The position numbers and the translations under genes are program-made. Shown one piece after another: positions 8,027-50,051 of a stretch of DNA of 64,000 nucleotides; the first letter of the stretch is position 1; each line of letters begins with the position of its first letter. Source of the DNA: an uncultured Spirochaetota bacterium (GTDB taxonomy: Bacteria; Spirochaetota; Spirochaetia; SZUA-6; Fen-1364); the NCBI GenBank assembly GCA_963734545.1, contig CAVTHO010000007.1, positions 384,001-448,000 of the forward strand, read 5' to 3'. The notes beneath the pieces were generated by a model, which was not told where the DNA came from, did no database searches, and worked only from the letters and a program-made list of their open reading frames with translations.

Positions 8027-11005
8027 ATGGAAACCCGTGACAGGATCGGCGCATTCGACGTGCTTTCCCGACGCGAAATACCCGAGTATCGCGCGCGCGG
8101 CGTGCATCTTCGGCACACGCGCACCGGCTGCGAGGTCATGCACCTCGAGGCGGCGGATACCGAGAACCTGTTCGCGTTCTGCTTTGCCACCCCGCCGCGT
8201 GACGACACGGGTGTTTCGCACATCATCGAGCACTCCGTCCTGAGCGGCTCCCGCGCGTACCCGCTCAAGGAGCCGTTCTCCGCGCTCATGAAAGGAAGCA
8301 TGCACACCTTCCTCAACGCCCTGACCTATCCGGACAGGACCGTCTACCCGGCGGCAAGCTGCAATCGCGCGGACTTCTTCAATGTGCTCTCCGTGTATGG
8401 TGACGCGGTATTTCATCCCCTGCTCCGAAAGGAAACGTTCATGCAGGAGGCATGGCGCCTGGAGGAGGAGGGGAATGGAACCGGCGGTTTGAAATATGCC
8501 GGAATCGTCTACAATGAGATGAAGGGAGTCTACTCGAGTCCTGATTCCATCGTTGCGGAATTGACGACACGGTCGCTTTTTCCCGACACGCCCTACCGGT
8601 TCGATTCGGGCGGGGATCCCCGCTCCATACCCTCTCTCACGCTGGAGTCGGCACGCGAGTTTCACGCACGCTACTACCACCCCTCGAACTGCAAGATCTT
8701 CCTCTACGGTGATATCCCGCTGCCGGACGTCCTCGGATTCCTTGAGGAAAAATTCCTTTCGGATTTCGACGCGTCACGCATTGACGCCGGTATACCCGCG
8801 CAAAGACGCTGGGACAGCCCGCGGCGGCTGGAGAAGACCTACCCGGTCAAGCCGGATACCCCCCTGGAGGGAAGGACGAGCGTGACGGTGAGCTGGCTGC
8901 TGCCTGCCGTCACCGACTCGGTGGCGCTGGTGACGCATGAAGTCCTCTCCGAGGTTCTCATAGAGAGCGCCGGTTCTCCGCTCCGAAAAGCACTCGTCGA
9001 TTCCGGGCTGGGAGAGGATCTGTCCCCTGTCAGCGGGCTGGAAACTGACCTGAAGGAGATGATTTTTGCGGTAGGCCTGCGAGGGGCCGAGCCGGACAGG
9101 GAAAAGAAGATCGAATCGCTCATCCTGGACACTCTGCATGCACTCTCGAAGGACGGGCTGGATCGGAATCTTGTCCAGTCCATGATCAATCGGGTGGAGT
9201 TCAGGCACCGGGAGATAAGGGGCAATGGGTCCCCCTATGCGCTCCGCCTCATGGGCCGCGCGCTCCGCGGGTGGGTTCACGGCATGGATCCTTTTTCCTC
9301 CCTCGAGTTCTCCGCTTCAATGAAGGAATTGAAGGCGCGGTTCGCCGGGAACCCGCGGTACCTGGAGGAGTGCCTTGACCGGAGCTTTTTCTCCAATCCG
9401 CATCGACTCACCCTTCTTGTCCGTCCTGACAGGGGCCAGGAGGCGCGGGAGGCGGCGGAGGACAAGGAGCGTCTGGACGCAGCCATACGAAGCCTTTCCG
9501 CGGAACAGATGGAGGCGGTGCGGAGCGAAGCGCGGCTGTTCCGCGCGTACCAGCTGGCCCCGGATTCGCCGCAATCTCTGGCGCTCATCCCCTCCCTTCG
9601 ACGCGCCGACCTCCCGCGGGAGGTGGAGAAGATCCCGATCGTCGATACCCGGACCCCGTCGGGTATTCCACTGGCCCTGCATGACATTTTTACCAACGAG
9701 ATTGTCTACCTGGACCTCGCTTTTCCCACGAACGACTTGACGGGTGAGCTTTCACTCCTGCTCCCGCTCTTCGGCAAGACCGTGTGCGGGACCGGTCTCC
9801 CCGGCCTGCGCTACGACCAGGTTGCGCTGGAGCTCTTCCGCCTGACCGGCGGGTTTTCCGCTGCCCTTGATGCCGGGGGAATCGTCGGACAGCCGGACGG
9901 CATTGGCCAATATGCGTTCTTCCGGTTCCGTTGTCTGCGCCAGAATCTCCCCGAAGCGGCGAACCTGGTGGCCCGGCTGGTCCAGGCAGCCGATTTTCGC
10001 GACCTCGCGCGGCTTCGCGACATACTGGTCGAGCTCCGCAATGACATGAAAGCCGCCCTCGTTCCGGGAGGCCACCAGTTCGCGATGCTCCGGGCGGCCA
10101 GCATGCTCTCCGCATCGGTTGCGCGGGAAGAAGAGTGGCGCGGCATCACCCAGCTCCTTTTCCTGGAGGGGCTGGTGGAGGGTATAGACGAGAAGCTGCC
10201 CCGTATCGCCGAGCGGCTCGAGGAAATCCGCCGGACTCTCCTGGTCCGGCCCCGGCTGATCGCCAATGCCACCGCGGGGAGCGATTCATTCGCGCAGGTC
10301 GCCCGGGCGGTAGATCTCATTGCGGCAGGCTGCGCGGAGCGGCTCCCTGCGGGGGAGCATGGCAATGCATCGTCGCGGCCGGCGGCCCAGGCACCGCAGC
10401 AGGAAAAAATCCGCGCGGAATCGTTCCTTGCAAGCGCTTCCGTCGGGTACATTGCCCGTGCCATTCCCGGCTTCCACTACGACCACCCGCTGAACGGCCC
10501 GGGCGCGGTCCTCGGCCATCTTCTCTCGACGGGGTACCTCTGGGAAAAGGTGCGCATGGAAGGAGGCGCCTACGGGGCGTTCTCCTACCCGCGCAACACG
10601 GACGGGCTTTTCCTGTTCGGCTCCTACAGGGACCCGCATATCACGCACACCCTCCACGCCTTCGGCGACGGTTTGCAGCTGATGGAGAATGGCGAGCTTG
10701 CCGACACGGAGGTTGAGAAAGCGGTCATAGGCACGATCGGCCGGGAAGACCGACCCATCGACCCGGGGGAGAAGGGATTCGTCAGCCTGCAGCGCAAGCT
10801 GCACGGCGTCACCGACGCTGCCCGGCAGGCCCGCCGGGAGAGGCTCCTCGCGGTGGACAGGCGCGCGGTGGGTCGGGCTGCGGCGGCGCTCCAGGAAGGG
10901 TTCGCTCAGGGCTTCACGGCCATCATCGCCAACCGCCAGACGGTGGCGGATGCGGCGGTGGAAATGCCCGAGCTCGGCCGCAGGGTCGTCGATCTTCCCG
11001 AGTAG
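8027..11005 (+). CDS. M16C insulinase-family metallopeptidase (presequence protease PreP-like)
   Basis: HIIEH zinc motif, FLNALTYPDRTVYP, VYNEMKG, VRMEGGAYGA. Confidence 0.92.
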   Translation: METRDRIGAFDVLSRREIPEYRARGVHLRHTRTGCEVMHLEAADTENLFAFCFATPPRDDTGVSHIIEHSVLSGSRAYPLKEPFSALMKGSMHTFLNALTYPDRTVYPAASCNRADFFNVLSVYGDAVFHPLLRKETFMQEAWRLEEEGNGTGGLKYAGIVYNEMKGVYSSPDSIVAELTTRSLFPDTPYRFDSGGDPRSIPSLTLESAREFHARYYHPSNCKIFLYGDIPLPDVLGFLEEKFLSDFDASRIDAGIPAQRRWDSPRRLEKTYPVKPDTPLEGRTSVTVSWLLPAVTDSVALVTHEVLSEVLIESAGSPLRKALVDSGLGEDLSPVSGLETDLKEMIFAVGLRGAEPDREKKIESLILDTLHALSKDGLDRNLVQSMINRVEFRHREIRGNGSPYALRLMGRALRGWVHGMDPFSSLEFSASMKELKARFAGNPRYLEECLDRSFFSNPHRLTLLVRPDRGQEAREAAEDKERLDAAIRSLSAEQMEAVRSEARLFRAYQLAPDSPQSLALIPSLRRADLPREVEKIPIVDTRTPSGIPLALHDIFTNEIVYLDLAFPTNDLTGELSLLLPLFGKTVCGTGLPGLRYDQVALELFRLTGGFSAALDAGGIVGQPDGIGQYAFFRFRCLRQNLPEAANLVARLVQAADFRDLARLRDILVELRNDMKAALVPGGHQFAMLRAASMLSASVAREEEWRGITQLLFLEGLVEGIDEKLPRIAERLEEIRRTLLVRPRLIANATAGSDSFAQVARAVDLIAAGCAERLPAGEHGNASSRPAAQAPQQEKIRAESFLASASVGYIARAIPGFHYDHPLNGPGAVLGHLLSTGYLWEKVRMEGGAYGAFSYPRNTDGLFLFGSYRDPHITHTLHAFGDGLQLMENGELADTEVEKAVIGTIGREDRPIDPGEKGFVSLQRKLHGVTDAARQARRERLLAVDRRAVGRAAAALQEGFAQGFTAIIANRQTVADAAVEMPELGRRVVDLPE

Positions 11006-11018
11006 GATACGGCAACAG

Positions 11019-11945
11019 ATGAATCTCGAAGCATTCGTACTTGGCACCGGCGGCATGATGCCCCTGCCCGGCAGGGGGCTGACGTCCGTCCTCGTGCGGA
11101 GGGAAGGGGAGCTGTTCCTCTTCGACTGCGGGGAGGGCACGCAGATCGGCCTCCGGCGGTTGAACCTGCGATGGAAGAAAATCACGAGCATTTTCATCTC
11201 TCACACGCATGCGGATCACGTGACCGGCCTTCCCGGCATCCTTATGCTCTCTTCCCAGGTGGATCGGGACGAGCCGCTCTATATCTACGGGCCTCCGAAA
11301 ATCCGGGATTTTGTCGAGGCAATGCGGCGGACGCTCGACATGTACATCAACTATGAAATCGTCGTGCGGGAAGTGGAAGGGAGCCTGGTCCTCGTACAGG
11401 CCGAGGACTACGCAATCCGCTGTCACCCACTCGTCCATACGAAGCCGTGTCTCGCGTACAGCATCGAGGAGAACATGAGGCCGGGCATCTTCTTTCCCGA
11501 AAAGGCCCAGGCCCTCGGCGTGCCGCGCGGTCCGATGTGGTCCCAGCTTCAGGGGGGAGAGAATGTGTGCCTCCCGGATGGAACGGTCGTGCAGCCCGCC
11601 CAGGTCATGGGAAGCGAGCGGAAGGGGAGGAAGTTCTGCTTTGCCACGGACACGGTCGTCGCTCCCGGTCTCGCGGAGTTTGCGAGAAACGCTGATCTGT
11701 TCATTTGCGAAGGAATGTTCGCGGACGAGCTGGCGGAAAGCGCCGCGGACAAGAAGCACCTGACGGCGACCCAGGCAGCGCGCATTGCGAGGGAAGGCGC
11801 CGTGAAACAGCTCGGCCTCATCCACTACAGCCCGCGCTATTCCGAGCGGGAGCTGAAGAAACTACTGGGGGAGGCGCGCGAGATATTCCCCGCGTCGTTT
11901 CTCACAAAGGACCTTCAACACATCGAGATGCCCTTCGACGATTAA
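11019..11945 (+). CDS. rnz: Ribonuclease Z
   Basis: LGTGGMMP, FDCGEGTQ, SHTHADHVTG, exosite GVPRGP, HYSPRY. Confidence 0.95.
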   Translation: MNLEAFVLGTGGMMPLPGRGLTSVLVRREGELFLFDCGEGTQIGLRRLNLRWKKITSIFISHTHADHVTGLPGILMLSSQVDRDEPLYIYGPPKIRDFVEAMRRTLDMYINYEIVVREVEGSLVLVQAEDYAIRCHPLVHTKPCLAYSIEENMRPGIFFPEKAQALGVPRGPMWSQLQGGENVCLPDGTVVQPAQVMGSERKGRKFCFATDTVVAPGLAEFARNADLFICEGMFADELAESAADKKHLTATQAARIAREGAVKQLGLIHYSPRYSERELKKLLGEAREIFPASFLTKDLQHIEMPFDD

Positions 11946-11972: not shown

Positions 11973-12716
11973 TCAACAATTCGAGCGGTGCCCCGCGTTG
12001 GCCTCGTACGCCGATATCCTCGCGGCAAACCCTGCCAGGGCGTCGAACGTCTCTTTCCGGGCGGCTGCCGCGTCACCCGCGAGCACGGCGGCCGCGATCC
12101 TTCGGTTGGCAGGCAGGACCTCGGCATTATAGGCGATCTCTTCGGGCGTCATGCCCACGTCCCCGATGGACAGGGAGAACTCCGCGTCCATGAACAGGCG
12201 CATCAGAAGCTCCTCCACGACCTTGAGGAGCCGGTTTCCCGTGAGCTCTGCCAGAAGGATGTAGAACTCCCATCCTCTCTTCGAGCCGCCGTGGGTCCTG
12301 AAATCGCATTCGTGTGCCGCAAGGAGAGAGGAGATTCTCGCGGCCCCCTCCGGGGTCATCTGCCGGGCCGCGGCTTCCGCGATCACGGGCTCGATAAGCT
12401 GCCGGGCCTGCATCAGATCGGCGAGAGAAAGGTGCGTCAGGCTCAGGTAGTTGGCAAGCACGCTGATTCCCATTGTAGGGGCCATGTCGAGCACTATGTT
12501 CCCCCCGCCGGGTCCGCGCTTGCGCGTGATATGCCCGTATTTTTCCAGGGTCTGGAGGGCCTCACCGAGGACGGTCTTGCTCACGTGAAATCGCTCGACC
12601 AGGTTGAACTCCGGCGGCAGGCGGTCCCCCGGCTTCAATTTGCCTTCCAGGATCATTTTCCATATCTCTTCGACAATCAGATCGGATTCTTTTTGCGGCG
12701 CACTCGCGCTTCTCAT
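11973..12716 (-). CDS. GntR/FadR family transcriptional regulator
   Basis: LKPGDRLPPE..L..RFHVSKTVLGEAL wHTH followed by an FCD-like C-terminal domain. Confidence 0.9.
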   Translation of the reverse strand: MRSASAPQKESDLIVEEIWKMILEGKLKPGDRLPPEFNLVERFHVSKTVLGEALQTLEKYGHITRKRGPGGGNIVLDMAPTMGISVLANYLSLTHLSLADLMQARQLIEPVIAEAAARQMTPEGAARISSLLAAHECDFRTHGGSKRGWEFYILLAELTGNRLLKVVEELLMRLFMDAEFSLSIGDVGMTPEEIAYNAEVLPANRRIAAAVLAGDAAAARKETFDALAGFAARISAYEANAGHRSNC

Positions 12717-12717
12717 T

Positions 12718-12756
12718 TGCGCAGATAGTAGATTCTGCGCAGCCGCTTGTCTACAA
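12718..12756. promoter_or_regulatory. GntR promoter (- strand) overlapped by candidate operator palindromes
   Basis: Minus-strand TAGACA-17-TACTAT. Inverted repeat TGCGCAGA-N8-TCTGCGCA and near-palindrome TTGTCTACAA (12747-12756) over the -35 box. Confidence 0.5.
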
Positions 12757-12837
12757 AAATCCCCGGCCGGGCAATTGCTCAGGCATCGTGCGGCCCGGGC
12801 TCTGGACGAGAGGGCGAAGGCCCTTTAGGCTGACCGG

Positions 12838-13762
12838 ATGAAGATTGCCATGATCGGGTCGGGGGCCATGGGCTCCCTTTTCGGGGGAAAGCTTTCGCTC
12901 GCCGGACATGAAGTCGTCCTCTACGACGTGTACGAGGAGCATGTGGAAAAGGTCGCGCGGGACGGGCTTTGCATCGAGGATGCCGCCACGGGTGCGGTCA
13001 CCACGGCCCGCCCTCGGGCGAGCGTTGACCCCGGAGCCGTCGAGGGATCAGAGGTTCTCGTGTTCTTCGTCAAGTCGACGGCAACCGGGCAGGCGGCGGC
13101 CCAATTTGCGCCGTTCGCGGGAAAAGATACAATCGCTCTCACACTCCAGAACGGCCTGGGCAATGAGGGGATCATCCGCCGCTTCTTCGGCCCCGAGAGA
13201 ACAGCGGCAGGGGTCACCTCCCAGGGTGCGACATTCCTCGGTCCCGGCCGCATCCGGCATGCCGGCAAGGGACCCACCCATATCGCCATGTCGGACGGGA
13301 AGAACGAGAAGCTCGCCGCACTTGCGGAGGCTCTGGGCAGGGCCGGATTCGAGACTCACGTGGAGAAAGACGTGGCCGCGCTCGTGTGGAGCAAGCTGGT
13401 GATCAATGTGGGCATCAACGCGCTCACGGCAATCAGCGGGCAGCCCAACGGGAAGCTGCTGGAGTCCGAGGAAGCGAAGGCTGTCATGGCGGACCTCGTG
13501 GCAGAAGCGGTGGCGGTGGCCAGGGCGAGCGGCATCCGCATTGCCTACGAGGACCCGCTTGCCACTGTCTACGGCGTGGCGGGAAGAACAGGGGCAAACC
13601 GCTCTTCCATGCTGCAGGATTTCGACAAGGGGCGTCGAGACGGAAATCGACTTCATGAACGGCGCAATCGTTCGGGAGGCTGCCGCCCGGGGCGTCGCGG
13701 TGCCCGTGAACCTCACCATCACCCGGCTGATCAAAATGCTGGAGAAGGCGGGGAAGGCGTGA
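12838..13762 (+). CDS. panE: 2-dehydropantoate 2-reductase, with a +1 frameshift near 13630
   Basis: GSGAMG, VKS, LQNGLG, WSKLVINVGIN.LTA, SSMLQD; continues in another frame as TEIDFMNGAIV to the stop at 13762. Confidence 0.88.
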
Positions 13763-15006
13763 TCAATGCGCGGGAAAAGAAGCTTCTCTCGCGTATCGAC
13801 CGGGATGAGCTCGTGCGCCTCACCTCGGATCTCGTGCGCATCGATTCCGTCATCCGGCCCGAAACAGGCGGCACCGAGCGGGACGTCGTCACCCATATCG
13901 CGGGCTGGATCAGACGCGAGCTCGCCCTGGAGCCATTGATCGATGAGGTGGAACCGGGCAGGCAGAACATCATCGTCACCCTCGATTCGGGCGTGCCGGG
14001 ACCGTGCCTCATGCTGGAAGGTCACACGGACGTGGTGAGCGAAGGCAGCCGGGAGAGCTGGACGCACGATCCCTTCGGAGGGGAAGTCATTGACGGGCGG
14101 ATCTACGGCCGGGGTGCCTGCGACATGAAAGCGGGGATCGCGGTTGCCCTCGCCGTCGTCAAGGCCTTCCGCACGGCGGGTGTCCCGTGGGCCGGCAGGA
14201 TCCGGCTGGGTCTCGTGTGTGATGAGGAAGGAATGATGCTCGGCATCAAGCATTTCATCCGCAAGGGGCACGCGGATGACGTCAATGCCTGTCTTGTGCC
14301 CGAGCCCGAAGAGAACAATCTCTGCCTCAGCATGAAGGGGGCTATCCGGGCCGTCCTGCGGGTGCACGGCAGGATGGCGCATGGAGCAATGCCGCTCGCG
14401 GGAATCAATCCCAACACGCGATTGGCGAGGATCATCCTCGCCTTCGAGCGGTTCGAGGCGGAAGAAAAGACCCGCTGCGGGAAGGACGAGTTCCTCGGGC
14501 TGCCCTCCGTCACTTTCACGGTGGTACAGAGTCCTCCGGCGGGAAGCCCTGCGCAGCTCAATGTCATGCCGGGCGAGGCACAGGCGTTCATCGACATCCG
14601 CACCACCCTGGCGCAGAACCATGATGCGGTCAGGGAGAACCTTCGCAGGATCCTCCGTGACCTTGCGGCGGCGGATCCTGACTTCAGCGCAGACTTGGAT
14701 TTCATCGAGGACCGCCCCGTGGTCGGTATCTCGAAGGAAGAGCCGATCGCCAGGGTGTCGGCGGAGGCATTCAGGGAGATAACGGGCAGGGAGCCGGTCT
14801 GGAACGGCGTGCCGGGCGCAACGGATGGCACCTTTCTCAGCTCCGAGAAGCACATCCCATGCCTGGTCAATGGTCCAGGCCCGCGCCACATTCCCCACCA
14901 GGCCGACGAGTACGTGGAGATCGACGAGCTGGAGGAATGCGCAAAGATCTACGTGCTTTCGGTGTCCAGGTACCTGTCTCAGACTGATATCTCAGGGACG
15001 CGTTGA
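13759..15006 (+). CDS. M20 family amidohydrolase (ArgE/DapE-like)
   Basis: GTG start overlaps the panE stop (GTGA). EGHTDVV, GRGACDMKAG, DEE, EPE, GATDG, HQADE. Confidence 0.9.
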   Translation: MINAREKKLLSRIDRDELVRLTSDLVRIDSVIRPETGGTERDVVTHIAGWIRRELALEPLIDEVEPGRQNIIVTLDSGVPGPCLMLEGHTDVVSEGSRESWTHDPFGGEVIDGRIYGRGACDMKAGIAVALAVVKAFRTAGVPWAGRIRLGLVCDEEGMMLGIKHFIRKGHADDVNACLVPEPEENNLCLSMKGAIRAVLRVHGRMAHGAMPLAGINPNTRLARIILAFERFEAEEKTRCGKDEFLGLPSVTFTVVQSPPAGSPAQLNVMPGEAQAFIDIRTTLAQNHDAVRENLRRILRDLAAADPDFSADLDFIEDRPVVGISKEEPIARVSAEAFREITGREPVWNGVPGATDGTFLSSEKHIPCLVNGPGPRHIPHQADEYVEIDELEECAKIYVLSVSRYLSQTDISGTR

Positions 15007-15031
15007 CACGGGAGTACTGATTTTCTAAACT
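15003..15031 (+). promoter_or_regulatory. sigma70-type promoter for the ABC operon
   Basis: TTGACA-17 bp-TAAACT overlapping the M20 stop codon. Confidence 0.65.
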
Positions 15032-15043
15032 CCGCTCAACGAT

Positions 15044-15811
15044 ATGGACGGCTGCCTGTTGCAAGTCACGGGTTTGAGCAAGTACTTCGGCGCCATCCAG
15101 GCGCTGAACGGAGTCGATATCGGCATTGCGGAAGGCAGCATACACGGGATCATCGGACCGAACGGGTCCGGGAAAACGACACTTTTCAATTGCGTGACAG
15201 GCCTGCTCAAGCCCACGGCCGGCCGGGTACTGCTGGAAGGCCGGGACATTACCCATCAGAGGCCGTCTCACATCGCGCACATGGGCGTCAGGCGCACATT
15301 CCAGGCAGGCAAGCTGGTCCCCGGCCTGACTGTGATCGAGAACGTGATGGCCGGGGTCAACGACGCGATAGGCAGGGCAACGGTCGATGCCGCCCTTCGG
15401 CTCCCATTCGTGCGTTCCCGGCGCGAGTCGGAAATAAGGGAGCGCGCGGCGCGCATTCTCGGGCTCGTCGGCATGGAGGAGAGCGCGGAACGCTGGGCAA
15501 GCGACCTGGTGTGGACAGAGCGGCAGCTCGTGCAGATCGCGCGCGCTCTTGTTGCAGAGCCGAAGCTTCTCCTCCTGGACGAGCCGGGCTCGGGCATGGG
15601 CCGCCGGGAAATCCAGAAGGTCGAGGAAATCATTCGCCGCATCCGGGACATGGGCATCACGGTCGTTGTGGTCAGCCACGACGTGAAGATGCTCATGAAC
15701 CTTTCGGATCTCGTCACGGTGCTGAACTTCGGGTTGAAGATCGCGGAAGGCGTGCCTGCCGAAATCCAGGCGGATCCCCGGGTGCTGGAGGCGTATCTTG
15801 GCGCTGAATAG
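15044..15811 (+). CDS. Liv-type ABC transporter ATP-binding protein (LivG-like)
   Basis: GPNGSGKTT, RTFQ, LLLLDEP, SHD, V.EAYLG. Confidence 0.92.
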   Translation: MDGCLLQVTGLSKYFGAIQALNGVDIGIAEGSIHGIIGPNGSGKTTLFNCVTGLLKPTAGRVLLEGRDITHQRPSHIAHMGVRRTFQAGKLVPGLTVIENVMAGVNDAIGRATVDAALRLPFVRSRRESEIRERAARILGLVGMEESAERWASDLVWTERQLVQIARALVAEPKLLLLDEPGSGMGRREIQKVEEIIRRIRDMGITVVVVSHDVKMLMNLSDLVTVLNFGLKIAEGVPAEIQADPRVLEAYLGAE

Positions 15812-16517
15812 CACGCCCCTGCTGTCCGTGGACAATCTTTCGGTCTCGTACGGGCACATCAATGCGCTGAAGGGCGCGACCCTCCAGGTGTTCCCCGGAG
15901 AGATCGTGGTGCTGATCGGCGCCAATGGGGCGGGCAAGACGACCCTCCTGGAGACGGTGCTCGGAATCAACGCGCTCACGACCGGCAGCATCAACTTCGA
16001 CGGCGCCTCCATCGGCGGGGTCAACGCGGACCGCAATGTGCGCGCGGGGCTGTGCCTCGTGCCGGAAGGCCGCGGAGTCTTTTCCTCGATGAACGTCCTG
16101 GACAACCTTCTCCTGGGCGCCCATCACAACATGCGCAATGTGGCCAGGAATCTGCGCCGCGTGTTCGACTGGTTTCCCATTCTCGAGAAGCGGCGGAACC
16201 AGATTGCGCGGACATTGAGCGGCGGGGAGCGCCAGATGCTGGCCATCGGCAGGGCGCTCATGTCCGCGCCGAAGCTCATCATGGTTGACGAGCCCTCCAT
16301 CGGGCTTGCCCCCATAGTCGTGAACGACATTTTCACCATCCTTGCGCGGCTCAACCACGAGGGATATGCAATTCTGCTCTCGGAGCAGAACGCCTACAAG
16401 GCCTTGAAATGCGCGCATCGCGGGTACGTGCTGGAAACAGGGGTGGTCACCCTCTCCGGAACCGCCGATGAGCTTCTGAATGACCCCGGCGTCAAAGAAG
16501 CGTATCTGGGAGCATAG
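15798..16517 (+). CDS. Liv-type ABC transporter ATP-binding protein (LivF-like)
   Basis: GANGAGKTT, VPEGRGVF, LSGGERQMLAIGRAL, EQNA. Confidence 0.92.
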   Translation: MALNSTPLLSVDNLSVSYGHINALKGATLQVFPGEIVVLIGANGAGKTTLLETVLGINALTTGSINFDGASIGGVNADRNVRAGLCLVPEGRGVFSSMNVLDNLLLGAHHNMRNVARNLRRVFDWFPILEKRRNQIARTLSGGERQMLAIGRALMSAPKLIMVDEPSIGLAPIVVNDIFTILARLNHEGYAILLSEQNAYKALKCAHRGYVLETGVVTLSGTADELLNDPGVKEAYLGA

Positions 16518-16519
16518 GA

Positions 16520-17404
16520 ATGCAGGTCTTCATTGCCCAGGTCATCAACGGATTGTCGCTCGGCAGCATATACGTGCTCCTTGTCACCGGCTTCAACCTT
16601 CTCCTCCTCGTTGCCATGATCATCCATTTCTCCTACCCGCAAGTCGTCGTATTCTCGATGTACATCGTGTGGGTCGTGCTGCGGGCCACGGGCAACAACC
16701 TGGTCCTCGGCATCCTGGCAGGAGTCGTCTCCTCTGTTGTGATCAACCTCATCTCGGCACCCCTGTTCCAGAAAGTGATGAAGAAACGCGGAGAGGTCGA
16801 CATCAACAGCACCATGGTCCTTTCGATGGGGATCGGGATGATCATCACGGATGTCCTCTCCCACACTTTCAACCAGGGATTGCCTATCGCGTTTCCCGAC
16901 GCTCTTGCAAGCGATGCGCCCATCGTGCGCCTCGGGCTCATCAGTGTCCTCACCGGACAGGTGTGGTCTCTTGCGGTCGGCATCGCGGCAGTCTCCGCTT
17001 TCTTCCTGCTTCTCTACAGGACCCGGCCGGGCAGGGCATTCCGCGCCATCGCGGAGGACCCGAACGGCGCGCGCCTGGTGGGAATTCCGCTCCTTCGGAC
17101 GGGACTGTACAGCTATGCGCTTTCGGGGGTGCTGGGCGGGGTCATCGCCGTGCTCCTTGCCATGCTTCTGGGATCCGCTTCGCCGGGGCTGGGCGAGCAG
17201 GTGGCGCACAAGGTGCTCGCCGTCTCCATCATCGCCGGACTGGGCCATCTCGCCGGCGGCTTGGTGGTAGGCCTCTTTCTGGGTATTCTTGAGGCAATCG
17301 TGCAGGGCTATATATCAGGCACATGGTCTGACGCGATTGCGTTCGTCATCATGCTGGTGGTGATACTGGCGAGGCCGAAGGGCCTTTTCGGCACCAAGCT
17401 CTAG
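16520..17404 (+). CDS. Liv-type ABC permease (LivH-like)
   Basis: INGLSLGSIY, T..GRAFRAIAED, RPKGLFG; hydrophobic. Confidence 0.9.
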   Translation: MQVFIAQVINGLSLGSIYVLLVTGFNLLLLVAMIIHFSYPQVVVFSMYIVWVVLRATGNNLVLGILAGVVSSVVINLISAPLFQKVMKKRGEVDINSTMVLSMGIGMIITDVLSHTFNQGLPIAFPDALASDAPIVRLGLISVLTGQVWSLAVGIAAVSAFFLLLYRTRPGRAFRAIAEDPNGARLVGIPLLRTGLYSYALSGVLGGVIAVLLAMLLGSASPGLGEQVAHKVLAVSIIAGLGHLAGGLVVGLFLGILEAIVQGYISGTWSDAIAFVIMLVVILARPKGLFGTKL

Positions 17405-17414
17405 GGAGGACGAC

Positions 17415-18305
17415 GTGCCGCTGCCTTTGTACTATTTTCTCGCCATCACGGCCGTCAACGTGCTCATGGCATGGGCGCTGTACCTCCCTTACCGCGTGGG
17501 CCACCTGCACTTCATCACCGTTGCCAACATGGCGATATCGGGCTACACGGCTGCCTGGCTCGTGATGTCCCTGCACGTGCCGTTCGGATGGGCCCTTCTC
17601 GTCGGTTTTGCCCTCGGCGGGATCCTGGGATACATCGTTTCTCTTTTCATCGGTGATGCCCCCACATTCGCCGTGGTGATCGTCGGGTTCACTTTCATCT
17701 ACATAACCCGTACCGTCATCGAAAACCTCAAGGCCGTGGGCGGGACCATGGGAATGTTCGGCCTGCCCAATATCGCCGGAAATCCCGCTGCCCACAGGTG
17801 GATCATCCTCGCGATCCTGTACGGCCTGCTGCTTCTGGTGGGATTTCTCATCCATCGCTTCGACCATTCGCAGCTGGGCCGGGCCGCCTCCGCGGTGTTC
17901 GTTGACAAGGACCTGGCCGCGTCTCTCGGCGTGGATATCCGAAGGCTCGGCATGCAGCTGCAGACGTTCAGCTGCACGATCGCGGGCGGGTGCGGAGTTC
18001 TGTACGGCTTCATCTACAAGAGCTTCCACCTGGATTTCTTCACGTTCGCGCTCGTCGGCATCGCCATGACGATAATCTTCGTGGGCGGGTACGCGACGAT
18101 GTGGGGTTCTCTCGTCCTCGCGCCCATCCTGTACGGTGTCCCGCTCCTGTTTCCGCCCGCCATCCAGTCCTGGCGGATCGTGATCTATGGCGCGCTCCTG
18201 ATTCTCGTGCTCGTGCTGAAACCGGAAGGGTTTGTCACACGGCGGTTCGTCTATTCCCTTGAATCCTTTCTTTCGGGAACCCGGAAGAAAAGAAATACTC
18301 TGTGA
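17415..18305 (+). CDS. Liv-type ABC permease (LivM-like)
   Basis: Hydrophobic; S.LGRA, A.SLGVD, VGG, KPEG. Confidence 0.88.
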   Translation: MPLPLYYFLAITAVNVLMAWALYLPYRVGHLHFITVANMAISGYTAAWLVMSLHVPFGWALLVGFALGGILGYIVSLFIGDAPTFAVVIVGFTFIYITRTVIENLKAVGGTMGMFGLPNIAGNPAAHRWIILAILYGLLLLVGFLIHRFDHSQLGRAASAVFVDKDLAASLGVDIRRLGMQLQTFSCTIAGGCGVLYGFIYKSFHLDFFTFALVGIAMTIIFVGGYATMWGSLVLAPILYGVPLLFPPAIQSWRIVIYGALLILVLVLKPEGFVTRRFVYSLESFLSGTRKKRNTL

Positions 18306-18314
18306 GGAGGATAT

Positions 18315-19474
18315 ATGAAGAAAGCTCTCGGTGTGCTTCTCGCTGCAGCGCTGCTTCTCGCCTTTGTCGGGTGCCAGCAGCCGGCACCAAAGGAATGGAC
18401 CGTTCCGTTCCTGAACTCCCTCACCGGCCAGATTGCGAGCATAGGTGAGTACCTCGAGTGGGGCGCGGAACGCGCTGCCAAGGAGATCAATGACGCCGGC
18501 GGAATCAAAGGCAAGCCGGTCAGGGTGGTCGGAGTGGACACCGCTCTGGACCCGCAGAAGGGCTCTGTTGAAATGGCCCGGCTGGTGAAGGATACGCTGG
18601 TCGCGCTGGGACCCGTGCCCGAGCCCGTCATCATGGCGGCCATGCCCATCGCGGTCGAGAACGGCATGGTGTCCATGACCGCGACGACCTCGCTGGAGTA
18701 TGCGCAGAAGTTCTTCCCCTGGACGGTGAGCTGGTTCCCCTCCACGGAAGAACGGCTTGCTCCGCTGGTAGCAGCGTGGGCCAAGCAGTTCCCTGAGATG
18801 AAGCAGGTCGTGCAGTTCGTCGAGCCGTACGGACCGTGGCCTGGAATGGCGGACGCGCACGTGAAGGGACTGGAAGGCCTTGGCCTCAAGGTTCTGGACA
18901 AGGTCGAGGTGCCCGACGAACGCCGTCACATTCGGACCGCTCGTCGTGAAGGCCCTCAATGCGAAGCCTGACGGCATGGTGTTCGTATGCAATGCCGACG
19001 GCAACGGCAAAGCTCATCAAGGAGCTCAAGAGCCGTGGATGGAAGAAGATGGACCACCTGCTGGTCTTCAGCAGCGGCGACGCTCCCGAGCTCTACGCGA
19101 CCGGCGGCAAGGACATCAACGGGGTGGAAATCTACAACTACATCAACCCGAATCTCGACAATCCCCGCTGGAACGCCTTCAAGGAGGCCTACGCGGCCGC
19201 GCACAACGGCAACCAGCCCCCGAGCCTCTCCACCAACTACTATGACGCCCTGTACATGATCAAGGATGCAATCGAAAAGACGGGTGTCACGGGCAGCCCG
19301 AGCAAGCTCAAGGCGGAGCGCAAGTTGATCGCGGATTACCTCCAGAATGTAAAGGGGTTCCACGGCATCATGTTCGACTGGGACATGAAGGACGGAGTCC
19401 CCACGAACAAGCCGACCTTTATCTTCCAGATCGAGGACGGCAAGAAAGTCCTCGTGCAGGAAGTGAAGGGCTGA
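18315..19474 (+). CDS. Liv-type ABC substrate-binding lipoprotein, with frameshifts near 18913 and 19000
   Basis: Lipobox FVGC, SLTG, EINDAGGIKG. Three overlapping frames join into one type I periplasmic-binding protein (YYDALY). Confidence 0.82.
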
Positions 19475-19513
19475 GGGTTTTCGAAGCGGGTGCTTTCACC
19501 TGCTGAAAATGAC

Positions 19514-19541
19514 AGGGCGCCGCTGACGGCGCCCTTTTTTT
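19514..19541 (+). terminator. Rho-independent terminator
   Basis: AGGGCGCCG-CTGA-CGGCGCCCT hairpin followed by a T run. Confidence 0.85.
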
Positions 19542-19569
19542 GTGCGCGCCGCTCTGCGCGCGCCCTTTC

Positions 19570-20568
19570 CTATGCGTGCCGCCGGGGGCCAGTCTGATCC
19601 TGCGTGCGGCCGATTTCCCTGCAGCCGGGAACACCGAACAGGGTATCGGCGGCGCGGATTGCATTCACCACGGCCTGCGCCATGACCCAGGCGGCAAGCG
19701 CCCCGACCCTGTTCACATCCGCCGAGACACCCCCTGTGCCCAGGGTGAAAATCACGTCTCCATCCCCGAGGGTATGGATGGGATTGATCGTCCGGGCATA
19801 TCCGTCATGCGCCATCAAAGCGACTCTTGCTGCCGCGGATTTTGTCAGGATGGCGTTCGACGCCACGACGCCAATGGTCGTGTTGGTCGGGAACACCTCC
19901 TTGTACGTGCCAGTAGTGCCCATCAACAAGCCCATGGCGCCTGCGACGCGCGCGCGATCCGGTGTCAGCGTTCCTGCCAGAACTTCACCCGTTTCAGGAT
20001 CCGAGACGTCGCCGTTGCAATTCACGGCGACGATGGCCCCGACCACCAGCTCGCCGACACGGACGCTCGCGGTTCCCAGTCCTCCCTTCACCATTCCCTT
20101 CAAGTTGCCGGACAGTCTTCCCACGGCTGCGCCCGTGCCCGCTCCGACGTTTCCCTGCCGGGACTCACGCGCGCTTGCATCCTGGCACGCCCGGTAGCCC
20201 ATGGCGGCATCGGGCCGGGCCCTGCCGCCCGTGAATGCCAGATCGTTCAGGACAGCTCCGGCAACGATCGGCACGACGGTCACCCCCACGTCGAAGCCGA
20301 TCTTCCGCTCCTCCAGAAAGCTCATGATTCCCGTGGCGCAGGCGAGGCCGTAGGCGCTGCCGCCGGACAGGAAGATGGCGTGGGCAGCGGGGACCACATT
20401 TTCCGGACGGAGGCAGTCTGTCTCCCGTGTGCCCGGGGCCCCGCCGCGTGCATCGACGCCGGGTACGGCCCCGGCCCTGCAGAGAATGACGGTGCAGCCG
20501 GTCATTCCGGAGGGATCCTGGGCATGCCCGACCTCGATGCCGGGAACATCGGTAATACTGCCGCTCAT
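19570..20568 (-). CDS. DmpA/OAT-superfamily Ntn hydrolase with an N-T-T autocleavage site (ThnT/NylC-like)
   Basis: SITDVPGIEVGH, RGGAPGTRET, GGSAYGL, GNVGAGTG, KGGLG, TNTTIGVV, HT..DGD. Confidence 0.88.
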   Translation of the reverse strand: MSGSITDVPGIEVGHAQDPSGMTGCTVILCRAGAVPGVDARGGAPGTRETDCLRPENVVPAAHAIFLSGGSAYGLACATGIMSFLEERKIGFDVGVTVVPIVAGAVLNDLAFTGGRARPDAAMGYRACQDASARESRQGNVGAGTGAAVGRLSGNLKGMVKGGLGTASVRVGELVVGAIVAVNCNGDVSDPETGEVLAGTLTPDRARVAGAMGLLMGTTGTYKEVFPTNTTIGVVASNAILTKSAAARVALMAHDGYARTINPIHTLGDGDVIFTLGTGGVSADVNRVGALAAWVMAQAVVNAIRAADTLFGVPGCREIGRTQDQTGPRRHA

Positions 20569-20619
20569 TGGTACGCCTCTCTGGATTGGCTCCGCGTGCA
20601 ACGCGGTGTGAACAAAGGC

Positions 20620-20741
20620 ACGTTAATGGCCCGCATGCGGTTTGTCAATGCGGATTGAAAAGCGGCTCCATATTACCGCGGCGCGCCAGAATCCGCGGAT
20701 TACCGCGATGCCTTGTGCGCGACCCGGTTTTTCGCTACGCT
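20620..20741. promoter_or_regulatory. Divergent promoters for the Ntn hydrolase and panB, with an ATTACCGCG direct repeat
   Basis: Minus strand TTGACA-17-TAACGT (20648-20620); plus strand TTGTGC-17-TACGCT (20713-20741); ATTACCGCG at 20672 and 20699. Confidence 0.5.
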
Positions 20742-20770
20742 GTTTTCACACCAGAGGAGGACAAACCACC

Positions 20771-21628
20771 GTGAGCGACATCAAGAAGCTGATGATCCCC
20801 GACCTGCACGCCATGAAGAAGGAAGGGAAGAAGATCTCCATGATCACCGCCTACTCGTATCCGCAGGCCCAGTGCGTCGATGAGGCGGGCATCGACATCA
20901 TTCTCGTGGGTGACAGCCTCGGGATGGTCGAGCTGGGATACAAGGACACGGTTCCCGTGACCATGGAGGAGATGCTCAACCACACCAAGGCCGTCATGCG
21001 GGGTGTGGCGCGCGCGCATGTCGTGGGTGACATGCCCTTCATGTCCTACAACATCTCGAAGGAACAGGCGATCACGAACGCGGGCATCCTGTACAAGGAC
21101 GGTGGAGCAGACTCCATCAAGCTGGAAGGCGGGCAGGAGATGGCGGCTTCGGTGAACGCCATCGTGAAGGCGGGGATCCCTGTGTTCGGCCACATCGGCC
21201 TCACGCCCCAGACAGCGGGAATGCTGGGAGGATTCAAGGTGCAGGGCAAGTCGCTCGACCAGGCCCGGAAGGTGATGGACGACGCGATTGCGCTGGAGGA
21301 GGCGGGCGTATTCGCGATCGTGCTCGAGGCCATACCCCGGCAGCTTGCCGCCCTCATCACGGAGAGGCTCAAGATCCCGACGATCGGGATCGGCGGCGGA
21401 ATGGACTGCGACGGGCAGGTCCTGGTGCTGCACGACATGGTGGGGCTCTTCAAGCGGTTCACGCCGAAGTTCGTCAAGGTCTATGCCGACCTTTACTCCG
21501 TCCAGCTCGATGCCGTCAAAAAATACGTCGGGGAAGTGAAGAACGGGACGTTCCCGTCGGAGGAACACACCTTCACGATGAAAGAGGAAGCGGTGGCGGA
21601 GCTCCGCAAATCGCTGGGAATGAAGTAG
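20771..21628 (+). CDS. panB: 3-methyl-2-oxobutanoate hydroxymethyltransferase
   Basis: MITAY, LVGDSLGM, GDMPF, KLEGG, GHIGLTPQ, DGQVLV.HD, PKFVK. GAGGAGG Shine-Dalgarno before the GTG. Confidence 0.97.
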   Translation: MSDIKKLMIPDLHAMKKEGKKISMITAYSYPQAQCVDEAGIDIILVGDSLGMVELGYKDTVPVTMEEMLNHTKAVMRGVARAHVVGDMPFMSYNISKEQAITNAGILYKDGGADSIKLEGGQEMAASVNAIVKAGIPVFGHIGLTPQTAGMLGGFKVQGKSLDQARKVMDDAIALEEAGVFAIVLEAIPRQLAALITERLKIPTIGIGGGMDCDGQVLVLHDMVGLFKRFTPKFVKVYADLYSVQLDAVKKYVGEVKNGTFPSEEHTFTMKEEAVAELRKSLGMK

Positions 21629-21656: not shown

Positions 21657-23003
21657 TCAGGTCCGCGCGGTGCTCAGAGAGTCTCGATACCGGGCGGGAT
21701 CCGCGCGGAAGCCCATGACCTGGTTCCCGCCTTCTCGTGTGGCCTTTGCCGCTGACACACTGGCCTCTTCGAGAAGCGTGATGTCCTCGATGAGGCGTCC
21801 TCCGCGCGAGCTCACGCCGATGGAGACGGTCCGGTTTCTCCCCTCGATCACCGTGTCCGCCACCTTGCCGCGGAACTCGTCGAGGACACGCACGGCAGCG
21901 TCCACCTCGTTGTCCGGCAGAAGAAGAGTGTAGGAATCGTCGCCCGCCTCGAATATCAGGTCGTGGAGAGGGAAGGTCTCTCTGAGAAGCCTCGCTATTG
22001 CGGTATAGACCTTCGGCAGCCGGGAATCGACGAACGGCTCATCGATCTGGACCCGCGCCAGCGCGACGTCCTGATCCGCCACGGCGGCCCGTTCAAGCTC
22101 GGCATGCAGCCGCGGCTCGAGGTGCTCTGCCCAGACAAGACCGGTGCGCGGGGACGTGAGACCCCTGGTCAAAGGCTGCGGCGATTCCTGCCGCGGCGGC
22201 TCCGGCTGCGGTTCCGGCTGCGGCTCTGGCATCATCGGTGCCAGTATCCGAGGTTCCGGACGCAGCGGTTCCGGGCGAGGCGGCGGGGCTCGCAGCGGTT
22301 CCGGCTGTGGTTGTGCCGCCTGAGGCTGCGCAGGCGGGACAGTCGAATAGCTCTGCTCACGCGGAGGAGCCCGGTCAGGCGCCTGAAAATCCGGGGGGGT
22401 CGGCGCGGGCGAGTAGCCAGAAACGCCGGAGCGTCCACGGGTCTCTGATGAGCTTTCCTGGATGCTCGTGACGATCAGTATGATCACACCGCAGACCAGC
22501 AGAAACGCGAGGAAAAGGTAAAGGTCGTCACGCACAATCGGGTAGAGATCTTCCCTGCCCATGATGACGAACATCGCGTCGAGAGCCAGGGGAGCCTGGT
22601 CGTTGCCGATCTCCCTGCTGAGAAGCAGCTCATATCCCTTGCTCACCTGATAGACCGGTGTGCCGCGCCAGGCAGGCGTAACGGGGCTCGGCTCTTTCAT
22701 GTACGTTCTGTTGCGCGCCACCAGGTAGAGGATGCCATCCTGCGTGGAATGCACGGAGAGCAGGAGCAGCCGCGGCTCCTCGTCGAAGACATCCCGCATG
22801 TCCTTCTTGAACTGGGGAGCATCGAAGCCGCCCGTGCTGTCCCGGATCGACAGGGTTTTGGACGCAAGCCCGGGCAGGCGCTCCCGCGCGGCTGCGGCGT
22901 TGGTCGTTCGGGCATTCTCGATCCTGTAACCGGTAAGGCCGACGATGAATATGAAGAACACCGCGCTCAAAGCGAGAAAAAACCAGGAAAAACCCTTATT
23001 CAT
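21657..23003 (-). CDS. Membrane protein with a Pro-rich linker and degenerate GGDEF domain
   Basis: Two TM segments, a PEPQ/PEPLR linker and a C-terminal GGDEF fold (AGDDS at the signature, TVSIGVS, A...GGNQV). Confidence 0.75.
   Translation of the reverse strand: MNKGFSWFFLALSAVFFIFIVGLTGYRIENARTTNAAAARERLPGLASKTLSIRDSTGGFDAPQFKKDMRDVFDEEPRLLLLSVHSTQDGILYLVARNRTYMKEPSPVTPAWRGTPVYQVSKGYELLLSREIGNDQAPLALDAMFVIMGREDLYPIVRDDLYLFLAFLLVCGVIILIVTSIQESSSETRGRSGVSGYSPAPTPPDFQAPDRAPPREQSYSTVPPAQPQAAQPQPEPLRAPPPRPEPLRPEPRILAPMMPEPQPEPQPEPPRQESPQPLTRGLTSPRTGLVWAEHLEPRLHAELERAAVADQDVALARVQIDEPFVDSRLPKVYTAIARLLRETFPLHDLIFEAGDDSYTLLLPDNEVDAAVRVLDEFRGKVADTVIEGRNRTVSIGVSSRGGRLIEDITLLEEASVSAAKATREGGNQVMGFRADPARYRDSLSTART
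22195..22310 (-). repeat. Short intragenic tandem repeats encoding PEPQ/PEPLR
   Basis: Recurrent GCGGTTCCGG(CT) units on the + strand. Confidence 0.6.
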
Positions 23004-23098
23004 GCTCTTCCCCCGCCGCATTGTGGAGTATAATCAGGGGCGCGCCTGCCGCGGAGCTCCGGGCGGAGCGCGGAAAGAAAAGTGGTTCGGAGGTGCCC

Positions 23099-23926
23099 AT
23101 GCGTGTGCGAAGAAGGTACCTGCCGCCGGGGTGGTATCCGGGCGCCGAAGAGAAGGCCCGGGAAGCAGTCGAGGACATGGAGAGATCCATCGATCCCGAG
23201 CCGGCCCATGGGATTGCGGGCATCGTGCCGCACGCGGGATGGGAGTTCTCGGGCAATCTGGCGTTCGAGGTTTTTTCGCGCATTTCGCGTACCATGGATA
23301 CCATCGTAATTATCGGCGGACACCTGGGCCCGGCTGACGGAATCTTGTGCGCATTCGAAGACTCCTACGAAACCCCTTTCGGGCAGCTCCCGGCGGATCT
23401 CGAGCTTCTTGCTGCTCTCCGCGCAGCCGTGCCTGTTTCCGAGGACCGGTCGGCTGATAATACGGTCGAGGTTCAGCTCCCCTTCGTGAAATACCTTTTT
23501 CCCAACGCAAGAGTGCTCGGCATGCGCGTATCTCCGTCACGCGACGCGGATCGGCTGGGCAAGGCGCTCGCGGAGGCAGCGCGAGGTCTCAAGAGAAGTG
23601 TCGGTGTCGCAGGATCGACCGACCTCACGCACTACGGGTCGAGCTATGGTTTCGCTCCCGCGGGAAGCGGCAACAAGGCGCTGCGATGGGTGCGGGAGGT
23701 CAACGACCATCGATTCATCGAGAGCGTCCTTGCCATGGAGTTCGACACTGCGCTGGAGCGCGCACTGAAGGAGAGGTCGGCCTGCTCTGCCGGCGGCGCC
23801 CTGGCGGCACTGAGCTTCGCGCGTGAAAATGGTGTCCGGCAGGGGAAGCTTCTGCGCTATTCGACCAGCTTCGATGTGCATCCCGGCGACTCTTTCGTAG
23901 GGTACGCGGGCATCCTCTACTCCTGA
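23099..23926 (+). CDS. AmmeMemoRadiSam system protein B (MEMO1 family)
   Basis: GWYP, IVPHAGW.FSG, DNTVEVQLPF, STDLTHYG, SFVGYAG. Confidence 0.9.
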   Translation: MRVRRRYLPPGWYPGAEEKAREAVEDMERSIDPEPAHGIAGIVPHAGWEFSGNLAFEVFSRISRTMDTIVIIGGHLGPADGILCAFEDSYETPFGQLPADLELLAALRAAVPVSEDRSADNTVEVQLPFVKYLFPNARVLGMRVSPSRDADRLGKALAEAARGLKRSVGVAGSTDLTHYGSSYGFAPAGSGNKALRWVREVNDHRFIESVLAMEFDTALERALKERSACSAGGALAALSFARENGVRQGKLLRYSTSFDVHPGDSFVGYAGILYS

Positions 23927-50006: not shown

Positions 50007-50051
50007 GGCGGATTGCCTTTCTCATCCTGATAACCTAACTTCTGCAGTAGA

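Follow-up and report, generated by a model that had tools for sequence, protein, structure and literature searches.

We analysed a 64,000-nucleotide (nt) stretch of the genome of an uncultured Spirochaetota bacterium (the window, whose numbering is used throughout) and focus here on a gene cluster at positions 11973-21628, in which homologues of the pantoate-forming enzymes PanE and PanB are encoded together with two amidohydrolases and a Liv-type ATP-binding cassette (ABC) importer. Genes were called by combining a listing of open reading frames (ORFs) with Pfam and NCBIfam profile scans at curated cut-offs. The window has a high GC content (about 0.58-0.66 across 2-kb windows), and the genome assembly to which it belongs comprises 10 contigs with a marker completeness of 89%.

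At its left end the cluster carries a GntR/FCD regulator gene of the FadR subfamily type on the minus strand (11973-12716, Pfam), divergent from panE and separated from it by 121 bp. On the plus strand, the gene of the PanE/ApbA homologue (12838-13762, with the true C-terminal frame at 13640-13762; TIGR00745, ApbA and ApbA_C) is followed by that of an M20 deacylase of the ArgE/DapE subfamily (13759-15006; TIGR01910). Downstream of M20 and on the same strand are genes for a LivG-like ATPase (15044-15811) and a LivF-like ATPase (15798-16517), both matching ABC_tran and BCA_ABC_TP_C, a LivH-like permease (16520-17404; BPD_transp_2, 104.6 bits), a LivM-like permease (17415-18305; BPD_transp_2, 51.1 bits) and a Peripla_BP_6 binding lipoprotein (18315-19474; profile match, split as assembled). 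A hairpin with 9-nt perfect arms followed by a run of seven T lies on the plus strand at 19514-19542; this terminator-like element would end a predicted operon that runs from panE to the binding-protein gene. The remaining part of the cluster consists of a gene for a ThnT-like S58 (DmpA/OAT) N-terminal nucleophile (Ntn) hydrolase on the minus strand (19570-20568; PF03576) and, divergent from it, panB (20771-21628, plus strand; TIGR00222 and NF001452). The probable start of the S58 gene is the ATG at 20568, with the ORF extending to a TTG at 20601, and the probable start of panB is the GTG at 20771, which has GGAGG upstream of it. Every gene listed for this locus by the initial annotation was found, at the coordinates it gave, including the GntR/FadR regulator divergent from panE and the Ntn hydrolase divergent from panB.

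Two further claims of that annotation, the translational coupling of panE to M20 and the completeness of the importer, depend on three one-base insertions that it missed. In the assembled sequence, panE and M20 merge into a single ORF of 722 amino acids (aa), with an extra T at 13635 shifting the panE frame, and the binding-protein gene is split by an extra G at 18915 and another at 18997. The overlap of the panE stop TGA (13760-13762) with the GTG start of M20 (13759), as GTGA, can be read directly from the sequence, and its role in coupling holds if T13635 is an error; in the same way, all five parts of the importer are present, and its binding-protein gene is intact only if G18915 and G18997 are errors. 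None of the three bases has a counterpart in five aligned relatives (G002, G014, G017, G007 and G006). They are the only uncompensated frameshifts relative to G002, whose cluster orthologues are about 86-97% identical at the protein level, within 12838-19474 (6.6 kb of coding sequence), and all three sit in CGTCG/CGACG. Given this sequence context and their absence from every relative compared, we consider the extra bases to be probably systematic assembly or sequencing errors. The recJ gene (36657-38961) is likewise split into two ORFs with frames offset by +1, the junction lying near 36968 in the context CCGACGG, which suggests that bases are systematically inserted in error at CGACG-type motifs throughout the genome, perhaps because methylation misleads the basecaller. 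A marker completeness of no more than 89% in an assembly of just 10 contigs fits such systematic insertions. Elsewhere in the window, a NuoF-like gene (Complex1_51K, 44868-46837) matches its profile only from position 44 and is preceded by an ORF with no domain match; it may be split as well, and no CGACG motif was seen in the junction stretch examined.

The frameshifts could instead mean that the cluster is decaying, with panE and the binding-protein gene being true pseudogenes, or that the adjacency of its genes is meaningless. Near-identical contigs from the communities that yielded the genus genomes come from runs labelled wetland metagenomes, and we compared contigs from four such runs (X1-X4) with the stretch. 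In X1, X2 and X4, the covering contigs lack both G18915 and G18997 at full depth. X3 keeps G18915, but its sole covering contig there omits the base at 18912 (depth 3.3 of 3.3); the omission of G18997 in X3 has a depth of 5.3 of 14.1, with a further omission at 18995 (5.75 of 39.7). Three of the four runs thus lack both binding-protein bases in all covering contigs, and the fourth lacks them in part. The extra base in panE (13637) is absent from one X1 contig only (7.47 of 20.7), and X2 and X3 have depth at this site without the deletion. This, together with the presence of three frameshifts in one assembly, favours decay, and it is mainly the relatives that lead us to treat the panE base as an error. 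Against decay stand the motif context shared with recJ, the lack of any other frameshift in 6.6 kb of otherwise closely similar coding sequence, and the conservation and recurrence of the cluster described below. We regard decay or chance adjacency as most improbable.

With a pair of ATPases that carry the BCA C-terminal motif, a pair of BPD_transp_2 permeases and a Peripla_BP_6 protein, the importer belongs to the HAAT (Liv-type) ABC systems. The LivG and LivF equivalogs are the best matches of the two ATPases though both score below cut-off (217.6 against 362 and 248.7 against 441), and the other components likewise miss the LivFGHMJ equivalog level (LivH 74.8 against 379, LivM 35.6 against 366, binding protein 41.2 against 477). 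The pieces of the binding-protein ORF match positions 2-173 and 200-342 of the Peripla_BP_6 profile, and a lipobox is read from the translation. A search of the PDB with an intact orthologue of the binding protein found no close solved relative, the best match (2.9e-13) being to generic amino-acid/amide binders, which gives no clue to its ligand.

PanB is assigned at the equivalog level, with 340.3 bits for TIGR00222 (cut-off 207.55) and 381.7 for NF001452 (cut-off 272). It matches positions 2-259 of the 259 of its Pfam profile, its nearest solved structures are the PanB proteins of M. tuberculosis and E. coli, and a single genomic match makes it the sole copy in this genome. The PanE homologue is assigned at the subfamily level: even with the frameshift it reaches 216.1 bits for TIGR00745 (cut-off 141.35). 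Its ApbA_C match, read in the assembled frame, stops at position 90 of 125; an intact orthologue (L028:4298-5236) matches ApbA and ApbA_C in full and has the ketopantoate reductases 3hwr (1e-45) and 5hws (1e-40) as nearest solved structures. The ApbA family also includes dehydrogenases other than ketopantoate reductase, and one solved entry of the family, 3wfi, which we take to be a mandelate dehydrogenase, matches the same orthologue at 4.7e-31.

The M20 protein scores 226.2 bits for TIGR01910 (cut-off 217.6), contains the Peptidase_M20 and M20_dimer domains and thus falls within the ArgE/DapE subfamily; its nearest solved structure is the DapE-like 7uoi (8.6e-41). It lies below the cut-off of every DapE/ArgE equivalog (NF006365, 213 against 289; TIGR01892, 139.8 against 297.7; TIGR01246, 117.7 against 361.8; NF009558, 186.6 against 428). 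Its orthologues are 66-88% identical across the genus and two genomes from other families of the order, G025 and G030, and the His, Asp and Glu motifs, presumably the metal ligands by likeness to DapE, are invariant in six orthologues. We set aside a housekeeping DapE or ArgE role on account of the equivalog scores, five further M20 paralogues in the genome and the persistent pairing of this gene with S58. By analogy with its family, M20 would be a candidate pantothenate (N-pantoyl-beta-alanine) hydrolase.

The S58 protein matches PF03576 with 153.3 bits. Its N-T-T motif aligns with the N-T-T of ThnT and of the nylon hydrolase 9cxr, and with the NCT of a ThnT mutant entry, so that a self-processing site N|T-T with a Thr nucleophile is predicted. 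Among PDB entries it matches the nylon-oligomer hydrolase 9cxr (3.7e-59), an aminopeptidase/esterase, and ThnT (3.4e-47 over residues 13-304); the kinship to ThnT and the shared N-T site agree with the initial annotation. On the family chemistry, in which ThnT hydrolyses a cysteamine amide and ArgE/DapE members cleave N-acyl amino acids, we tentatively assign the two bonds of pantetheine, with S58 as a putative pantetheinase and M20 as a putative pantothenase. S58 orthologues occur in 17 of the 19 genomes of the genus surveyed below, and those at the locus fall into two classes with 69-79% and 55-59% identity to the window protein. G002 has an S58 of the more distant class (58%) in a cluster that otherwise shares about 86-97% identity with the genes in the window, which looks like the replacement of an S58 allele within a conserved locus.

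The regulator has the GntR (52.7 bits) and FCD (50.4 bits) domains of the GntR/FadR subfamily, and reaches the cut-off of no NCBIfam equivalog. Its gene was found in one of eight other genus loci (L029, from G002), or two of nine loci when this genome is included, and since it occurs only here and in this near relative it is not a core part of the cluster. Next to it, in the gntR-panE intergenic region, a perfect inverted repeat TGCGCAGA-N8-TCTGCGCA at 12718-12741 may represent an operator. No motif like this palindrome occurs in the S58-panB intergenic region, and we therefore set aside a shared GntR operator for both halves of the cluster. The S58-panB region has its own repeats at 20672-20707, where two exact direct copies of ATTACCGCG, 27 nt apart, surround the palindrome AATCCGCGGATT; this element is possibly a regulatory site unrelated to the palindrome on the gntR side.

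To place the cluster in its phylogenetic context, we drew 31 genomes from the order, 19 of them from the genus (this genome and 18 others). The gene order RNase Z, PanE, M20, LivG, LivF, LivH, LivM, binding protein, S58 (on the opposite strand) and PanB is kept in seven of the eight genus loci fetched, and the eighth ends at a contig end inside the binding-protein gene. All 19 genus genomes contain the M20 orthologue (in pieces in three low-quality assemblies) and PanB, which is present in 26 of the 31 genomes of the draw. Elsewhere in the draw, G025 (66% identity) and G030 (69%) have the M20 orthologue, and the other 10 genomes have only M20 paralogues of about 23-33% identity. In G025 the parts are rearranged: S58, PanE and M20 form a co-directional set in which PanE and M20 overlap and which is convergent with a binding-protein gene, a formate-tetrahydrofolate ligase gene adjoins the module, and a second locus has PanB immediately downstream of, and co-directional with, LivG, LivF, LivH and LivM. 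In G030 the S58/PanB pair is again divergent. A second PanB paralogue, about 50% identical, is encoded in several genus genomes (L124-L129) but not in this one; its neighbours vary, among them an IclR regulator, another Liv-type ABC system and, directly downstream, a class I/II aminotransferase. Among 150 further genomes drawn evenly from the phylum none had the M20 orthologue (E <= 1e-90), so that its distribution is patchy.

We next scanned species-representative genomes with the M20 alignment and obtained 11 loci at 40% identity or more (L038-L048) and 69 at 27-34%. The 11 closest loci contain S58 in nine cases, a PanE homologue in three and PanB in three, with none of these in one. A Spirochaetales metagenome-assembled genome (MAG; L038) has every part of the module; a deltaproteobacterial MAG has S58, SBP_bac_5 and permease genes of the Dpp type, M20, two ATPases, PanE and PanB on one strand; and a Thermomicrobiales MAG has M20-PanE-PanB. 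Meiothermus and Actinomycetota have the S58-M20 pair, and in Brevibacillus and Neobacillus this pair stands behind two ATPase genes of the energy-coupling factor (ECF) type, a full EcfA-EcfA-EcfT-S component set being confirmed ahead of S58-M20 in B. reuszeri. S58-M20 pairs occur beside an importer in at least five other phyla, in three cases together with PanE and PanB, and three different importer families are attached to this enzyme pair. Among the 69 more distant loci, PanB is present in 10 and S58 in 12; in three of them, from Rhodobacteraceae (L055, L081 and L100, by Pfam), M20 is followed by panC-panB on the opposite strand and then by S58, and one is preceded by a Dpp-type importer. 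Conservation of the gene order through the genus, and the return of the same parts in new arrangements both in two further families of the order and in several other phyla, show that the genes of the cluster are functionally linked and not a chance arrangement. The neighbourhood survey proposed by the initial annotation is positive at each of these levels. In a PanB tree built from the loci fetched here, with seven left out as overlapping loci or further genus copies (L010 and L032-L037), the module-linked PanB proteins of the order form a clade with 100/100 support, and the deltaproteobacterial and Thermomicrobiales proteins are unresolved at the base; a 'catabolic PanB' subfamily travelling with the module is not demonstrable from this tree.

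We then asked which steps of coenzyme A (CoA) synthesis these genomes encode, using family searches for PanC (PF02569), archaeal PPS (PF02006) and CoaB (DFP domain, PF04127) with controls that detected each family in the expected reference genomes (14 of 14 for CoaB). PanC was found neither in this genome nor in any of the 19 genus genomes, and in one of the 31 genomes of the order draw (G024, next to panB). PPS was likewise absent from this genome and from all 19, with 4/31 in the order (families f2 and f5), and so was CoaB, with 6/31. A profile search for PanD, made in this genome only, was negative at its 89% completeness. The initial annotation had noted that panC and panD are missing from the locus and had proposed a search for separate panBCD copies; neither PanC nor PanD was found anywhere in the genome, and PanB is single. 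CoaX, CoaD and CoaE are all present in this genome. The incompleteness of MAGs limits what single absences mean, and does not explain a pattern of 0/19. Without PanC, PPS and CoaB in the genus, PanB and PanE cannot feed CoA synthesis by known routes, and beta-alanine and pantothenate have no known consumer. Beyond the order, the Spirochaetales MAG that has every part of the module likewise yielded no PanC and no CoaB; the Thermomicrobiales MAG has CoaB but not PanC, and the deltaproteobacterial MAG and Brevibacillus possess both. Judged by gene content, the genus resembles a CoA auxotroph that depends on pantetheine and yet has kept PanB and a PanE homologue. Also left without support, for the genus, is an idea raised in the initial annotation, the import of beta-alanyl compounds to replace PanD: with neither PanC nor PPS found, beta-alanine has no known use there, and we rejected beta-alanine supply for PanC as the purpose of the cluster.

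Taken together, these observations lead us to propose, with a probability of roughly 0.4, that the cluster is an uptake and breakdown module for B5-type pantoyl amides, that is, pantothenate and probably pantetheine or pantethine. More specifically, the Liv-type system with its lipoprotein binding protein would import the pantoyl amide, and the ThnT-like S58 and the ArgE/DapE-type M20 would cut its two amide bonds, releasing cysteamine, beta-alanine and pantoate. The PanE homologue would oxidise pantoate to ketopantoate, the reverse of the ketopantoate reductase reaction, and PanB would cleave ketopantoate into 2-oxoisovalerate and 5,10-methylene-tetrahydrofolate by running its reversible aldol-type reaction backwards. 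2-Oxoisovalerate could then enter fermentation, for example via a 2-oxoacid:ferredoxin oxidoreductase. The catabolic direction is favoured by the presence of PanB in 19 of 19 genus genomes that have none of PanC, PPS and CoaB, and catabolism alone gives every conserved part a role without inventing enzymes. A similar pathway had been suggested by the initial annotation. It is supported in part, by the linkage of the genes, the kinship to ThnT and, beyond what that annotation could draw on, the missing anabolic outlet; the substrate, the bond cut by each hydrolase and the direction of PanE and PanB are inferred there and here alike.

Thermodynamics is the first difficulty of this proposal. Ketopantoate reductase strongly favours the formation of pantoate, and reverse flux would consequently need a downstream pull. 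Such a pull fits with the position of PanB beside subunits of 2-oxoacid:ferredoxin oxidoreductases (POR_N/PFOR_II, POR gamma) in G030, G023 and the Spirochaetales MAG (L120, L131 and L038), with the formate-tetrahydrofolate ligase beside the G025 module, and with pantothenate being useless as a vitamin without CoaB. The oxidoreductase adjacency is, however, equally compatible with reductive synthesis of 2-oxoisovalerate. Several other points also weigh against catabolism. B5 vitamers are scarce nutrients, and a dedicated ABC importer suits vitamin scavenging as well as breakdown. The genus requires pantetheine for CoA and yet would encode a pantetheine hydrolase, and G025, which has CoaB and lacks PanC and PPS, would degrade a vitamin that it needs. 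Among solved proteins of known ligand none is similar to the binding protein, and the S58 alleles of the genus form two divergent classes. Linkage is not uniform in the order either: the M20 orthologue of G030 (L027; G030:C43, 2217-9211) sits with purine and folate genes and not with PanE or S58, and G023 and G027 have PanB without PanC, PPS, CoaB or the M20 orthologue, so that retention of PanB in the order is not strictly tied to the module. Finally, the Rhodobacteraceae M20 (about 30% identity) and S58 flank biosynthetic panC-panB, a layout that fits a supply or recycling role, to which we give less weight because this M20 belongs to another NCBIfam family, NF009558. The co-directional row that M20 heads at L027 continues with a split PurH-like pair, a thymidylate-synthase-like gene, serine hydroxymethyltransferase, FolE2 and a protein of no assigned family.

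The module might instead take up and cut an amide that has nothing to do with vitamin B5, for instance a beta-peptide, an N-acyl amino acid or a small peptide-like molecule; PanE would then be a general 2-hydroxyacid/2-oxoacid dehydrogenase, and PanB would have a different role involving 2-oxoacids or one-carbon units. Outside the order, 6 of the 11 closest loci (from Brevibacillus, Neobacillus, Actinomycetota and Meiothermus) have the S58-M20 pair without PanB or PanE, beside importers of the peptide type (SBP_bac_5) or the ECF type. The family placements leave room for such a substrate too, as the nearest solved relatives of S58 are nylon-oligomer hydrolases and an aminopeptidase/esterase, M20 lies below all named equivalog cut-offs, the ApbA family contains the non-pantoate dehydrogenase match 3wfi, and the second PanB paralogues of the genus lie near an aminotransferase, IclR or other Liv systems. 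PanB at the cluster is nevertheless canonical by its equivalog score. It stands beside the module in four lineages, namely the order of the window, the deltaproteobacterial MAG, the Thermomicrobiales MAG and, with a distant M20, the Rhodobacteraceae, and in G025 it is co-directional with the importer genes. In addition, we know of no natural pantoyl compounds other than the B5 vitamers. We therefore consider a different amide possible but unlikely.

The reverse direction has its own case. PanB and PanE, which are biosynthetic by family, could make pantoate, the importer and the hydrolases could supply beta-alanine, pantothenate or pantetheine, and an unrecognised ATP-dependent ligase, together with a substitute for CoaBC, could complete the route. 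Pathway replacement does occur in the order: G022 carries an operon of a pyridoxal phosphate-dependent decarboxylase, PanB, PPS (PPS_PS) and a GHMP kinase (L122; G022:C2, 7027-10839), which is an archaeal-type route in a bacterium, and PPS is found in families f2 and f5. (PPS is also present in G019, G026 and G029, and G019 and G026 are without PanB.) The Rhodobacteraceae layout, the CoaB of G025 and the proximity of the G030 M20 to serine hydroxymethyltransferase and folate genes, a possible supply of methylene-tetrahydrofolate to PanB, can all be read in this sense, and ECF importers such as those of the Brevibacillus loci are typical of vitamin uptake. For the genus, however, an anabolic or salvage role requires two enzymes of a new kind, one for PanC/PPS and one for CoaBC, in 19 of 19 genomes, profile scans of the genus loci found no ligase-like gene in the conserved cluster, and in this genome beta-alanine and pantothenate have no known consumer. 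Such a role appears quite unlikely to us. A more radical variant arises from the observation that the genomes keep PanB, the PanE homologue, CoaX, CoaD and CoaE with nothing known in between. M20, S58 or both might act as an ATP-free amide synthase or transamidase joining pantoate to imported beta-alanine, beta-alanyl-cysteamine or a related amine, with CoaX pulling the reaction, and so bypass PanC and CoaBC. We rate this as very improbable; if true, bacteria without PanC, PPS and CoaBC would possess a hitherto undescribed route to pantetheine and CoA.

The cluster is bordered on the left by the RNase Z gene (10950-11945, plus strand; ORF and profile scan) and on the right by a gene for a weakly GGDEF-like protein (21657-23021, minus strand; profile scan). 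Two genes from PanB, at 23537-26314, a 925-aa protein has as its sole domain match MptE-like (6-hydroxymethylpterin diphosphokinase-like). Further away, at 49119-51227, a gene for a UbiE/COQ5-type methyltransferase is divergent from one for a type III polyketide synthase (chalcone/stilbene synthase-like).

The proposed breakdown of pantoyl amides bears on an enzyme activity without a gene. Pantothenase activity has been known since the 1960s. A 2023 article showed that bacteria split pantothenate and recycle its beta-alanine, and it states that the pantothenase protein is unknown (PMC10393543). The accessible text of a 2025 review of bacterial CoA metabolism contains no occurrence of 'catabol' and treats pantetheinases only for the host, and in the full-text literature that we searched, with subscription journals outside its coverage, no gene-level account of pantothenate breakdown was found. 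The cluster supplies two candidate enzymes for this orphan activity, the M20 deacylase and the S58 Ntn hydrolase, and a simple testable route in which both pantoate-forming enzymes would run backwards. As the S58-M20 pair with an ECF importer is present in cultured Brevibacillus strains, the chemistry can be tested in tractable organisms. The genomic state itself, with PanB in 19/19 genomes and PanC, PPS and CoaB in 0/19, is unusual, and automatic annotation would call it 'partial B5 biosynthesis', mis-predicting vitamin needs and cross-feeding.

Comparison with known systems shows how far each part of the cluster is familiar. The window S58 shares with ThnT of the thienamycin cluster (3tm1, 3s3u, 4ihd) the S58/DmpA-OAT fold family and the N-T nucleophile site, but ThnT is 419 aa long against 332 aa, and the nylon hydrolase 9cxr is a closer solved neighbour still. 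ThnT works with ThnR and ThnH; no gene of the ThnR or ThnH kind was seen in the cluster, where the partners are instead the importer, M20, PanE and PanB. The DmpA/BapA beta-aminopeptidases are members of the same S58 family and release N-terminal beta-amino acids such as beta-alanine. They process at G-S or N-S sites, whereas the site of the window protein is N-T, and a supply of beta-alanine would lack a consumer in the genus. With the ArgE/DapE deacylases, the window M20 has in common the TIGR01910 level, the dimerisation domain and the His/Asp/Glu motifs, but it stays below the equivalog level, and its regular partners are S58 or PanE, not genes of lysine or arginine metabolism.

At the level of the pathway, PanB (equivalog level) and PanE (family level) match their counterparts in the canonical panB-panE-panC-panD set; here, however, no PanC, PanD or CoaBC was found, and the two are embedded with an importer and two amidohydrolases. 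The archaeal-type pantoate kinase/PPS route explains PanB without PanC in families f5 and f2 but not in the genus, where PPS is 0/19. A metabolic parallel is the degradation of pantothenate by Pseudomonas, described in the 1960s-70s, in which pantothenase (EC 3.5.1.22; work cited in PMC10393543) acts first and pantoate is then oxidised to 2-oxoisovalerate. Our proposal would have the same start (pantothenate to pantoate and beta-alanine) and the same end in 2-oxoisovalerate. The classical route oxidises C4 of pantoate via aldopantoate and dimethylmalate, whereas the route proposed here would use PanE and PanB in reverse and yield a one-carbon unit bound to tetrahydrofolate. The parts come from known families, and it is their combination and direction that would be new.

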